Shown: positions 42,464 to 44,247 of the stretch, piece after piece
Layout: every line of letters starts with the position of its first letter
Position numbering within the stretch: position 1 is the stretch's first letter
From: Bacilli bacterium
Lineage (GTDB): Bacteria; Bacillota_I; Bacilli_A; RF39; UBA660
DNA length: 64,000 bases
NCBI GenBank assembly: GCA_041655535.1
Contig: JBBAFH010000004.1
Span: forward strand, 4,276-68,275
Reading direction: 5' to 3'
The notes under the pieces: generated by a model
Seen by the model: only the letters and a program-made list of their open reading frames with translations
Told to the model about the DNA's origin: nothing
The model's database searches: none
Position numbers and translations under genes: made by a program

Positions 42464-42946
42464 ATGAGAAGAATGTCAAAATTATTTTCTATATCTATAA
42501 TTACAGTGTTTCTATTTTTAGCAACATTTATGATTGATAATAAGAAAGTAGAGGCACTTTATTATCCAGATTCTTATTATGATGCTGTTTCGTGGATATA
42601 TCAATATCAAGCACCATACACATGGAGTTATAATTGTTTAGGTTGGGCAACAGGAAGTATGACTTTTGAATGGCCGTCTAATTGGGGAAATGGAGGAACT
42701 AAACAACAAGTAGATTCATATATGATTTTTAAAGGATATAAAGTTAGTAACTTATCTCCTTCATTAAAGTCTACTAGAATAATATCATATGGACCAAGTG
42801 TCAATAATATAACACACTTTTCAAAAGTAACCCCAACAGCGGTAACAGCAAAATGGGGTTCACTTGAAAGATTTACTCATTTTATTAGTATTGATCCATA
42901 TTATGCTAATAGTGATTATGGATTATCACGAGGAAATTATTTTTAA
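42464..42946 (+). CDS. Secreted small protein with conserved Cys/His residues (putative papain-fold/CHAP-like hydrolase), element cargo
   Basis: Signal peptide MRRMSKLFSISIITVFLFLATFMI. The mature region has YNCLGWATGS...ITHFSKV...ERFTHF. GGGAGG ribosome-binding site. Confidence 0.55.
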   Translation: MRRMSKLFSISIITVFLFLATFMIDNKKVEALYYPDSYYDAVSWIYQYQAPYTWSYNCLGWATGSMTFEWPSNWGNGGTKQQVDSYMIFKGYKVSNLSPSLKSTRIISYGPSVNNITHFSKVTPTAVTAKWGSLERFTHFISIDPYYANSDYGLSRGNYF

Positions 42947-42965
42947 AAAGGAGGGAATTTAATTT

Positions 42966-43739
42966 ATGAATCAAAAAATAAAACGATTCGGATTTGGAAT
43001 AATATCAGTATGTGCTACAATATTAATAGTTACTCTGTTACTTCATAACCAGCAAGATATATACGCAAAAACACTTAATAAAATAGACGCCATCACATTA
43101 GAAATTAATTCCAATATAAATAAAATGATCAGTAGTAGAGATGTAAAAAGTTTTTCATCAAGCCCCTACACCATTGTAGAGGGTAATCAATCATATAAAG
43201 ATTTAGTTTCGTTAGGAGTACCAGCTATAAAACCATTATATGATAAAATTAATCAGAGTAAACACAGTGGATTGCTTGAATATATATATGCAATGGCAAT
43301 TGAAGAAATAATGTCTCAAAATTATATATTACAGTTAGATGTTGATGAAGAAAAAATAAACGAATTACAAAAAAATGGCTATTCTTTACGAGATGTTGAA
43401 TATAGCTGGGCAACTGCAAAAGAATTTGAACAAGCATTTTCTGATTTTATGAAAGAATTACCGAAAAAGTATGAAGATATTAAAAATGATAGCACTTTAA
43501 ATGTAGAGAAAAAAACATTTAAAGTGACCGAATTGGGATTAGGCGTTATTCCTTACTTAATTCAAGATATACAAAATGATTTGAATTCTAGCCTTGATTA
43601 TGAAAACCTATTAATGGAAATATTAGTAGAAAGAAATCAAATGAAAGATTTATCAGAAAAATCGAAAAATTTTGTTGTGGATGATTGGATAAAACAAAAT
43701 TATGAAGAATATAATTTATTAAAAATGATAGCAGAATAA
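42966..43739 (+). CDS. Membrane-anchored hypothetical protein, element cargo
   Basis: 257 aa with an N-terminal signal-anchor TM helix and an extracytoplasmic domain. Confidence 0.5.
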   Translation: MNQKIKRFGFGIISVCATILIVTLLLHNQQDIYAKTLNKIDAITLEINSNINKMISSRDVKSFSSSPYTIVEGNQSYKDLVSLGVPAIKPLYDKINQSKHSGLLEYIYAMAIEEIMSQNYILQLDVDEEKINELQKNGYSLRDVEYSWATAKEFEQAFSDFMKELPKKYEDIKNDSTLNVEKKTFKVTELGLGVIPYLIQDIQNDLNSSLDYENLLMEILVERNQMKDLSEKSKNFVVDDWIKQNYEEYNLLKMIAE

Positions 43740-43779
43740 TCTATATTAAATAGTATCATAATAATTTAGAGAACTTTTC

Positions 43780-44247
43780 ATGGTTATTGGAGGATTTATG
43801 AGTTTAAATAAAAACATACAATTTTTTCTATTAGTAATAATAATATTATTATTTATAATGTTATTTATCATTATTCAAAAATATGGTAAAGGGGATAAAC
43901 CGCTGTTAGATAATGAACTTGAAATTTATACACCATTAGAAAAATATTCATTAAGCATGAGCAGTATTAAAGGTTTTCCTTTTGAAATTAACTGTAATAA
44001 CGAGAATGTTATTATTAAGATTTCTAGTGGAGTATTGTTAGATGATAACGATGTGTTGCTTAATCATAATAGCAATTTTGAATATGAAATTTCTTGTAAT
44101 AAAAAAATTTATTGGAATCCTATAAATAACGATGATTATGATAATAAAGTTATTGATATTAATATTAGATTATCAAATAAAAATTCTGAACAAAAAAATT
44201 TTAAATTGAAAAAGAATGAAGAAAATGAATACTATTTATTAGATTAG
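43780..44247 (+). CDS. Small membrane-anchored hypothetical protein, element cargo
   Basis: 155 aa with an N-terminal TM helix FFLLVIIILLFIMLFIII. Confidence 0.5.
   Translation: MVIGGFMSLNKNIQFFLLVIIILLFIMLFIIIQKYGKGDKPLLDNELEIYTPLEKYSLSMSSIKGFPFEINCNNENVIIKISSGVLLDDNDVLLNHNSNFEYEISCNKKIYWNPINNDDYDNKVIDINIRLSNKNSEQKNFKLKKNEENEYYLLD

Follow-up and report, generated by a model that had tools for sequence, protein, structure and literature searches.

A 64,000-nucleotide stretch of contig JBBAFH010000004.1 (positions 4,276 to 68,275, forward strand, of assembly GCA_041655535.1) from a Bacilli bacterium of the RF39 lineage UBA660, hereafter the window, carries an integrative mobilisable element (IME) whose probable cargo is three consecutive genes, here named g1, g2 and g3. 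Taken together, the evidence suggests, at a probability of roughly one half, that g1-g2(-g3) forms a horizontally mobile extracytoplasmic cassette in which g1 would be a thiol hydrolase, g2 its neutralising partner and g3 a binder. The genes and their candidate promoter are as follows, counting from the first letter of the window:

42464-42946, plus strand: g1, 160 aa, starting MRRMSKL (from the open reading frame (ORF) and homologues); secreted DUF7689 protein, candidate catalytic residues N57, C58, H118, K130 and E135.
42966-43739, plus strand: g2, 257 aa; predicted all-alpha helical partner, phrog_34886; motifs SSSPY, GVPAIKPL, GLLEYIYAMAIEEI, W..AKEF and LGLGVIPYL.
43798-44247, plus strand: g3, probable gene, 149 aa; single-pass membrane protein; motifs KYSxSMSSxKGFPF and IYWNP.
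42228-42256, plus strand: candidate sigma-70-type promoter 5' of g1 (TTGACA, 17 nt spacer, TG-extended TATTTT), from a consensus scan.

A first-pass annotation made from the sequence alone had placed three ORFs of 160, 257 and 155 aa here, and both their positions and the g1 motifs it quoted (YNCLGWATGS, ITHFSKV and ERFTHF, all present in the translation) are correct, as are the first two lengths. The third is probably 149 aa: the g3 frame is open from 43780 (to 44247, 155 aa), but the ATG at 43780 was rejected as a start for want of a ribosome-binding site before it, and the ATG at 43798 is the likely one because it follows a GGAGG at 43790-43794. g1 is preceded by the Shine-Dalgarno sequence GGGAGG (5-10 nt 5' of the start) and g2 by GGAGGG; a longer GTG-started version of the g1 frame, from 42365, was discarded on ribosome-binding-site grounds as unlikely to be a real gene. 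Since homologues exist for all three (41 for g1, best E 1e-56; 34 for g2; and, for g3, at five other loci), these are real genes and not chance ORFs. A single operon is plausible because the intergenic gaps are short (19 nt between g1 and g2, 40 nt between g2 and g3) and a scan found no terminator-like site between the genes. The promoter at 42228-42256 is at most a weak candidate, the total of such sites in the consensus scan being not above shuffle expectation.

g1 is a member of Pfam DUF7689 (PF24738), which it matches at 53.1 bits against a gathering cut-off of 22.6 bits over profile positions 2-111 of 118, and it aligns over its full length with phrog_38160 (E 8e-32); all 41 homologues match DUF7689 as well. 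Exhaustive searching with g1 among 1.84 billion sequences recovered 273 cluster representatives (50% identity) at E <= 1e-3. The earlier statement that none of the three proteins could be assigned to a family is hence superseded for g1, and for g2 (phrog_34886, E 1e-16), and holds for g3. DUF7689 and both PHROGs are nevertheless families without functional annotation, and no mention of DUF7689, PF24738, phrog_38160, phrog_34886 or DUF5301 was found in the literature searched; PADLOC and NCBIfam searches of the three proteins returned zero matches, no known enzyme matched g1 significantly, and sequence searches of the PDB with g1 and with its profile gave nothing meaningful.

Among 159 sequences covering the DUF7689 domain, His118 is invariant (159/159), and Asn57 and Cys58 are each kept in 157, the two exceptions at Cys58 being Ser and Tyr; Lys130 is kept in 154, Gly132 in 153 and Glu135 in 141 (89%), the last being replaced by Asn, Gln or His in a subgroup of fusion proteins. 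Many aromatic residues (W70, W74, Y56, Y109, Y146 and Y152) are also invariant. Of the Cys...His...His arrangement originally proposed for g1, the first two residues are thus borne out, whereas the second His (H139, within ERFTHF) is variable among relatives. Cys58 and His118 lie 60 residues apart, with Lys130 at His+12 and Glu135 at His+17; the Cys-His and His-Glu spacings (60 and 17) resemble those of CHAP enzymes. The predicted signal peptide, of about 33 residues with cleavage between ..VEA and LYYP, confirms another early observation, and a Sec-type signal peptide with an A-x-A-like site is found in every g1 homologue, placing the protein, by prediction, outside the cell. DUF7689 can be described as a small family of Cys-His proteins that anaerobic Bacillota export, gut Lachnospiraceae among them.

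The AlphaFold2 model of g1 (predicted local distance difference test (pLDDT) score 89.3) is laid out as helix-helix-five strands, with a helix beginning exactly at Cys58 and a strand beginning at His118, followed by three more strands, so that in the model Cys58 and His118 sit where the papain-like dyad lies. Foldseek comparison of this model with the PDB placed TecA, Spr/MepS, other NlpC/P60 proteins (four entries) and Tae3 in about ten of the top 50 positions, none significant, and comparison with BFVD gave NlpC/P60, CHAP, endolysin and tail lysin as top matches, again not significant (best E 0.046, probability 0.75); among these weak matches the NlpC/P60, CHAP and Tae folds are strongly enriched and are the only recurrent families. 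The single Cys-to-Ser replacement in the family is, moreover, typical of a nucleophile. From the model and the conservation, g1 is very probably a Cys-His hydrolase of papain-like architecture. The first-pass annotation had compared it with CHAP and NlpC/P60 hydrolases, a comparison that survives as predicted dyad placement and weak structural matches and fails at the level of sequence profiles.

The likeness to NlpC/P60 (MEROPS C40) and CHAP (C51) papain-like cell-wall hydrolases, among them Tae3 (an amidase effector of type VI secretion) and TecA (a deamidase), would thus consist of a small alpha+beta domain with a Cys at a helix N-terminus, a His at the start of a strand and a polar residue one or two strands after the His. 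In contrast, there is no detectable similarity of sequence profile; the motif in those families is D-C-S-G or Q-C, as opposed to N-C-L-G-[YW]-A in g1, and g1 has an invariant Lys at the position expected for the third residue of the triad. g1 further differs from Tae3/TecA-type effectors in being exported by Sec and not by a specialised secretion system, and DUF7689 proteins differ from NlpC/P60 and CHAP proteins in that their accessory modules bind carbohydrate and not peptidoglycan.

Most DUF7689 members are stand-alone proteins of about 150 aa. In long members (600-1100 aa) the domain is placed after CBM96-like, ricin-B, or Kelch and LamG modules: ten such proteins carry CBM96, ricin-B, Kelch or LamG, or no recognised domain, together with Sec signal peptides, and none of the ten has a toxin-delivery domain (LXG, Rhs/YD, PT-TG and similar). 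Nor was any cell-wall-binding domain (SH3, LysM or CW_binding) found in the DUF7689 architectures seen. CBM96 is an alginate-specific carbohydrate-binding module (PMC9971899). Because of these modules, and of the lack of delivery or peptidoglycan-binding domains, the architectures point to an enzyme that would act extracellularly on, or next to, glycan-rich material. They also tell against the toxin originally envisaged for g1, the N-terminal partners of the long proteins being carbohydrate-binding and not delivery domains.

The strongest association of g1 is with g2. In 17/17 informative distinct loci, spanning Bacilli, Lachnospiraceae, Peptococcaceae, Clostridium and one actinobacterial metagenome-assembled genome (MAG), a g2-family gene lies 12-60 nt 3' of g1, and at least nine proteins join the two in a single chain in either order: g1 comes first in eight cluster representatives (P0049, P0051-53, P0056, P0075, P0077 and P0085) and g2 in P0064 and in a protein of the Clostridium tagluense plasmid pCM022-58. 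The Asn-Cys-His-Lys set is retained in all of these fusions. Strict adjacency and fusion in both orders indicate, at the level of gene organisation, that g2 physically partners g1, as the first-pass annotation had suggested in calling the downstream products immunity or partner proteins; its alternative of classical toxin and immunity is hard to reconcile with the fusions.

Dependence within the pair is asymmetric: no g1 was seen lacking g2, but solitary g2-like genes exist (L017/L044 and L045), extra g2 paralogues stand beside the pair (L001, L008, L012 and L020), and the g2-family gene of a high-GC genome (L016, 4793-6738) comes after two others, which encode a small secreted protein of 191 aa resembling Peptidase_M10 and a lipoprotein of 182 aa. 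The g2 family is hence not restricted to DUF7689 enzymes, given this pairing with an M10 peptidase. It also diverges about twice as much as g1 (29/27/44% identity for g2 versus 55/48/56% for g1). Because of this combination—an enzyme gene never without its partner, orphan and extra partners, the M10 neighbour and faster divergence—g2 is most likely a cognate neutralising partner, i.e., an exported protein of the inhibitor or immunity type, and the fusions would then resemble zymogens that carry their inhibitory domain in cis. On the Roseburia-type contigs L017/L044 (about 7134-10700), the orphan g2-like gene is followed on its 3' side by genes for a 136-aa secreted protein without known family and an FtsX-type ABC transporter.

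Both upstream products seem to leave the cell. The first-pass annotation had regarded g2 and g3 as N-terminally anchored membrane proteins, which fits g3; g2, however, has a cleavage site (between ..IYA and K), and in 11/11 aligned members the hydrophobic N-terminus leads into such a site, with Ala at position -1 and a residue at -3 that is small or aliphatic. g2 is probably secreted rather than membrane-anchored, because this A-x-A type site is conserved across its family. The g2 model (pLDDT 87.8) contains helices only: after the export signal come one long helix at the N-terminal end and a series of helical repeats, and Foldseek matched it to generic helical repeats only. Beyond phrog_34886, Pfam, NCBIfam and PADLOC gave no family for g2; a PDB match of its profile to designed retro-aldolases and indole-3-glycerol phosphate synthase TIM barrels (E 7e-4) is considered spurious in view of the confident all-helical model.

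Only about 8 residues of g3, on the cytoplasmic side, precede its one transmembrane helix, which has no cleavage site; the ectodomain beyond it measures about 120 aa and, judging by its sequence pattern, looks beta-rich. Neither Pfam, NCBIfam and PHROG nor a PDB search with the g3 profile gave a family. The ectodomain is recognisable by the motif YSxSMSSxxGxP at its start, which is strongly conserved and also occurs as YSxxMSSxPGxP, and by IYW(S/N)P; profile searching found it beside g1-g2 in six distinct loci (the window, L007, L013, L023, L004 and L010). It is anchored by a transmembrane helix in the window and L007 and belongs to lipoproteins in L013 and L023. In L004 (7425-8703) and L010 (1260-2613), two loci unrelated to each other, it is the part lying outside the cytoplasm in anti-sigma-like proteins; their genes overlap extracytoplasmic function (ECF) sigma genes and directly adjoin the g1-g2 pair. 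The g3 versions of the window, L007, L013 and L023 are without a cytoplasmic anti-sigma part and without a nearby sigma gene, so that g3 of the window, having no cytoplasmic sigma-binding domain, is not itself such a factor. L007, a Bacillota MAG, holds the complete g1-g2-g3 trio at an ordinary chromosomal site where neither a recombinase nor a relaxase is present. Most g1-g2 loci lack g3, and at others the third position is taken by a DUF5301 protein (L033) or a second g2 paralogue; the L033 DUF5301 gene and the L016 lipoprotein were tested as relatives of g3 and are not related to it. As judged from these sequences, g3 is a frequent, non-obligatory accessory tethered on the outside of the membrane, where it probably binds or senses the same extracellular cue.

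The g1-g2 pair is a portable cassette, since it is found in IME, conjugative, plasmid, prophage and chromosomal contexts, and its cargo role on the recombinase-MobV element of the window fits this, in agreement with the mobile module of the first-pass annotation. Its closest relatives lie beside a gene for a type IV secretion system coupling protein in L029-31 and beside an OLD-family nuclease gene in L033. Plasmids gave one g1 match, the pCM022-58 fusion, and GenBank phages none; in IMG/VR prophage contigs the pair is present as a moron between portal and head-maturation protease genes. In one of these, a 54 kb contig (L041, 2811-9310), it sits within a siphovirus-like head module, flanked on one side by the portal gene and on the other by the head-maturation protease gene and major head genes, and its two proteins are near-exact representatives (founding members) of phrog_38160 and phrog_34886. 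Chromosomal copies adjoin cellulases, a penicillin-binding protein, an agr-like locus or ECF sigma systems; in L046 (1-4199) the pair is divergent from an agr-like quorum-sensing locus (AgrB, AgrC-like kinase and LytTR regulator). ECF sigma/anti-sigma neighbours (L004, L010) or agr-like ones fit a regulated secreted factor. Decayed copies also occur: a frameshift has broken g1 in two in an Actinomycetota MAG (L014, 3581-4116), only the first 70 g1 residues remain in L015 (6001-6249), and g2 is cut to 110 aa in L010 (3095-3427).

What is established is how the genes are built and arranged, their fusions and mobility, the export signals and the conserved residues; catalysis, the class of substrate, the inhibition by g2 and the part played by g3 are inferred. 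These observations can be combined in the following way. g1 would be exported by Sec and its signal peptide cleaved, leaving a mature domain of about 127 aa in which Cys58, at the helix N-terminus, would be the nucleophile and His118, on the second strand of the five-stranded sheet, the base, with Asn57, Lys130 and Glu135 assisting; its substrate would probably belong to the cell envelope or be associated with glycan, and in it g1 would break an amide or ester bond. g2 would be co-exported and bind g1 as an exported inhibitor or immunity-type protein, keeping the enzyme from harming its producer, and in the fusions it would serve as a pro-domain that inhibits in cis. g3, on the outside of the membrane, would most likely bind the same extracellular ligand, or g1/g2, without signalling.

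Several results weigh against this scheme. The 41 g1 members gave zero matches to Pfam clan-CA families, including NlpC/P60 (PF00877) and CHAP (PF05257), even at E <= 10, and hhalign comparison of the g1 alignment with that of E. coli MepS, NlpC, MepH and YafL reached a probability of 1.1% (against a shallow target of 4 sequences) and with the CHAP domain of the E. coli Gss amidase 0.5% (against a single-sequence target). The invariant Lys130 is atypical where the third triad residue is usual. For g2, sequence, profile and structure searches detected no relative of known function, and the single-chain fusions speak against strict toxin and immunity and would also fit a chaperone or an adaptor. 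g1 cannot be filed in the NlpC/P60 or CHAP family, and an earlier version of the hypothesis, in which g1 is a true peptidoglycan hydrolase of one of these families and the module a Sec-secreted bacteriolysin with its immunity protein, is unlikely: the weak fold matches and the carriage of the cassette by mobile elements suit it, but there is no profile match, the architectures contain no SH3, LysM or CW_binding and instead CBM96, ricin, LamG and Kelch modules, the enzyme is fused to the presumed immunity protein, and the prophage pair is located in the head module and not in the lysis cassette. That g1 is not an enzyme at all, i.e., a small secreted binding or structural protein using Cys and His for a metal or ligand, is a very unlikely reading; a carbohydrate-binding protein could be expected to have such invariant aromatics and to be fused to lectin-type modules, and no enzyme matched g1 significantly, but a single invariant Cys at a helix N-terminus opposite an invariant strand His, with one Cys-to-Ser replacement, is the signature of a nucleophile-base dyad, and a second conserved metal ligand is absent.

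The remaining alternatives concern the partners. g2 might be a helper on which g1 depends: a steric chaperone or a foldase resembling a pro-domain, comparable to Lif of secreted lipases, would let g1 fold, or a targeting adaptor would bring it to its substrate. Strict adjacency and fusion in either order agree with this, fusion being common among intramolecular chaperones and accessory domains, and the g2 layout of an export signal, a long N-terminal helix and helical repeats, as well as a g2-like gene beside another small secreted peptidase, point the same way. This proposal appears doubtful, however, since g2-like genes stand alone without an enzyme gene and extra paralogues accompany a single g1, a pattern of orphans and extras typical of protective proteins and not of dedicated chaperones, and since Pfam shows no match of g2 to lipase chaperones or any foldase. 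A signalling device, in which g1, as a protease of the site-1 type or as a generator of ligands, would work on g3-type ectodomains and so release an ECF sigma factor where g3 belongs to an anti-sigma factor, with g2 as regulator, is quite unlikely: it would account for the g3-like ectodomain in anti-sigma-like proteins at two unrelated loci and for the strong conservation of YSxxMSSxPGxP at the ectodomain start, but four of the six g3 loci, including the window, have neither the anti-sigma part nor a sigma gene, most g1-g2 loci have no g3, and adjacency to sigma/anti-sigma genes may simply mean that the pair is regulated. A more speculative extension, and a very improbable one, is a hitherto unrecognised protease-based extracytoplasmic signalling or exclusion system, in which g1, as a secreted thiol protease checked by g2, would cleave or load a g3-type ectodomain; the chromosomal versions, with that ectodomain as sensor of an ECF anti-sigma factor, would represent a new site-1 activation route, and the mobile, sigma-less g3 would be a decoy or surface modifier to the benefit of the element, e.g., excluding competing phages or elements.

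If g1 is instead a hydrolase held in check by g2, as favoured here, the closest parallels in working are pairs of a secreted enzyme and its dedicated inhibitor. In SpeB-Spi, staphopain-staphostatin and the serralysin pair AprA-AprI, the enzyme gene is followed in one operon by a gene for a small dedicated binding protein; Spi is related to the SpeB pro-domain, AprI is exported, and staphostatins and Spi are cytoplasmic. By analogy, the pro-domain kinship of Spi parallels the g1-g2 fusions and the export of g2 is likened to that of AprI. In contrast with staphostatins, Spi and AprI, g2 is predicted to be all-alpha and is unrelated in sequence or fold, and unlike the cytoplasmic staphostatins and Spi it has a signal peptide; its role as an inhibitor is a proposed one. 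For Tae effectors, likewise, a neighbouring gene encodes the cognate immunity protein, which is exported. The cassette would thus resemble secreted-protease/inhibitor and Tae/Tai-type pairs in its proposed working, is unrelated to them in sequence, and is set apart by Sec export, the fusion forms and a third component common to anti-sigma factors. With polymorphic toxin/immunity systems it has in common a downstream partner in 17/17 loci and orphan or extra copies of that partner, yet at least nine single-chain fusions exist and the long DUF7689 proteins have no toxin-delivery domain. The pairing with g2, the fusions and the link between g3 and anti-sigma factors appear in no DUF7689 or PHROG family description found.

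In the window, which has a GC content of about 27%, the cassette is embedded in the following features:

38577-38650, plus strand: tRNA-Gly(GCC), followed by its own terminator hairpin.
39130-40929, plus strand: large serine recombinase (Resolvase, Recombinase and Zn_ribbon_recom; Pfam).
40938-42179, plus strand: MobV (Mob_Pre) relaxase (NF041497 MobV, 105 bits against a cut-off of 100).
44320-44575: structured non-coding stretch, a hairpin array between g3 and the regulator.
44576-44803, minus strand: small Cro/C1-type helix-turn-helix (HTH) regulator (HTH_26), convergent with the cassette.

The recombinase-MobV backbone is that of an IME, and the GC and AT skews of the 39-44 kb block run opposite to those of its flanks. 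The tRNA-Gly(GCC) gene is the probable left neighbour of the insertion; between its terminator hairpin and the recombinase gene lies a 111-aa ORF without known family (38737-39072). No convincing terminal repeats were found, repeat searches being uninformative in such AT-rich DNA, and two exact-match metagenome scans for the flanks returned nothing. The stretch at 44320-44575 is GC-richer than its surroundings and folds as single-stranded DNA into 7-8 hairpins (-44.6 kcal/mol, shuffled sequences giving -20.9 +/- 3.3, z = -7.2); it matches neither an Rfam family nor any plasmid, and may be the origin of transfer (oriT), a single-strand origin (sso) or a recombination site of the element. The convergent HTH gene layout recurs in L033. 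The element shares with Tn4451/Tn4453-type mobilisable transposons, whose recombinase is TnpX and whose relaxase is TnpZ, a large serine recombinase, a MobV/Mob_Pre relaxase, short cargo and a small regulator, and its position beside a tRNA gene agrees with such elements; on the other hand, no plasmid-borne relative of its recombinase exceeds about 31% identity, and its cargo is not antibiotic resistance, Pfam and NCBIfam finding no resistance genes, as had been noted from the outset. Elsewhere in the window, a plus-strand block with positive GC skew (30924-37300) begins right after tRNA-Cys (30924-30997) in otherwise mostly minus-strand surroundings and may be another inserted island.

Overall, the interpretation proposed at first is partly supported, and the family now has a definition that can be tested, comprising the candidate catalytic residues Asn-Cys...His...Lys/Glu, a partner that is obligatory and supported by Rosetta-stone fusions, and a recurrent third component common to ECF anti-sigma factors. 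The pair moves among IMEs, conjugative elements, plasmids and prophages as moron-like cargo. Should g1 be no such hydrolase, the cassette would merely add one more domain of unknown function on a small element; if g1 is indeed an envelope-active hydrolase with an exported inhibitor, a Sec-dependent enzyme/antidote cassette would join the accessory functions spread by mobile elements among Gram-positive anaerobes.

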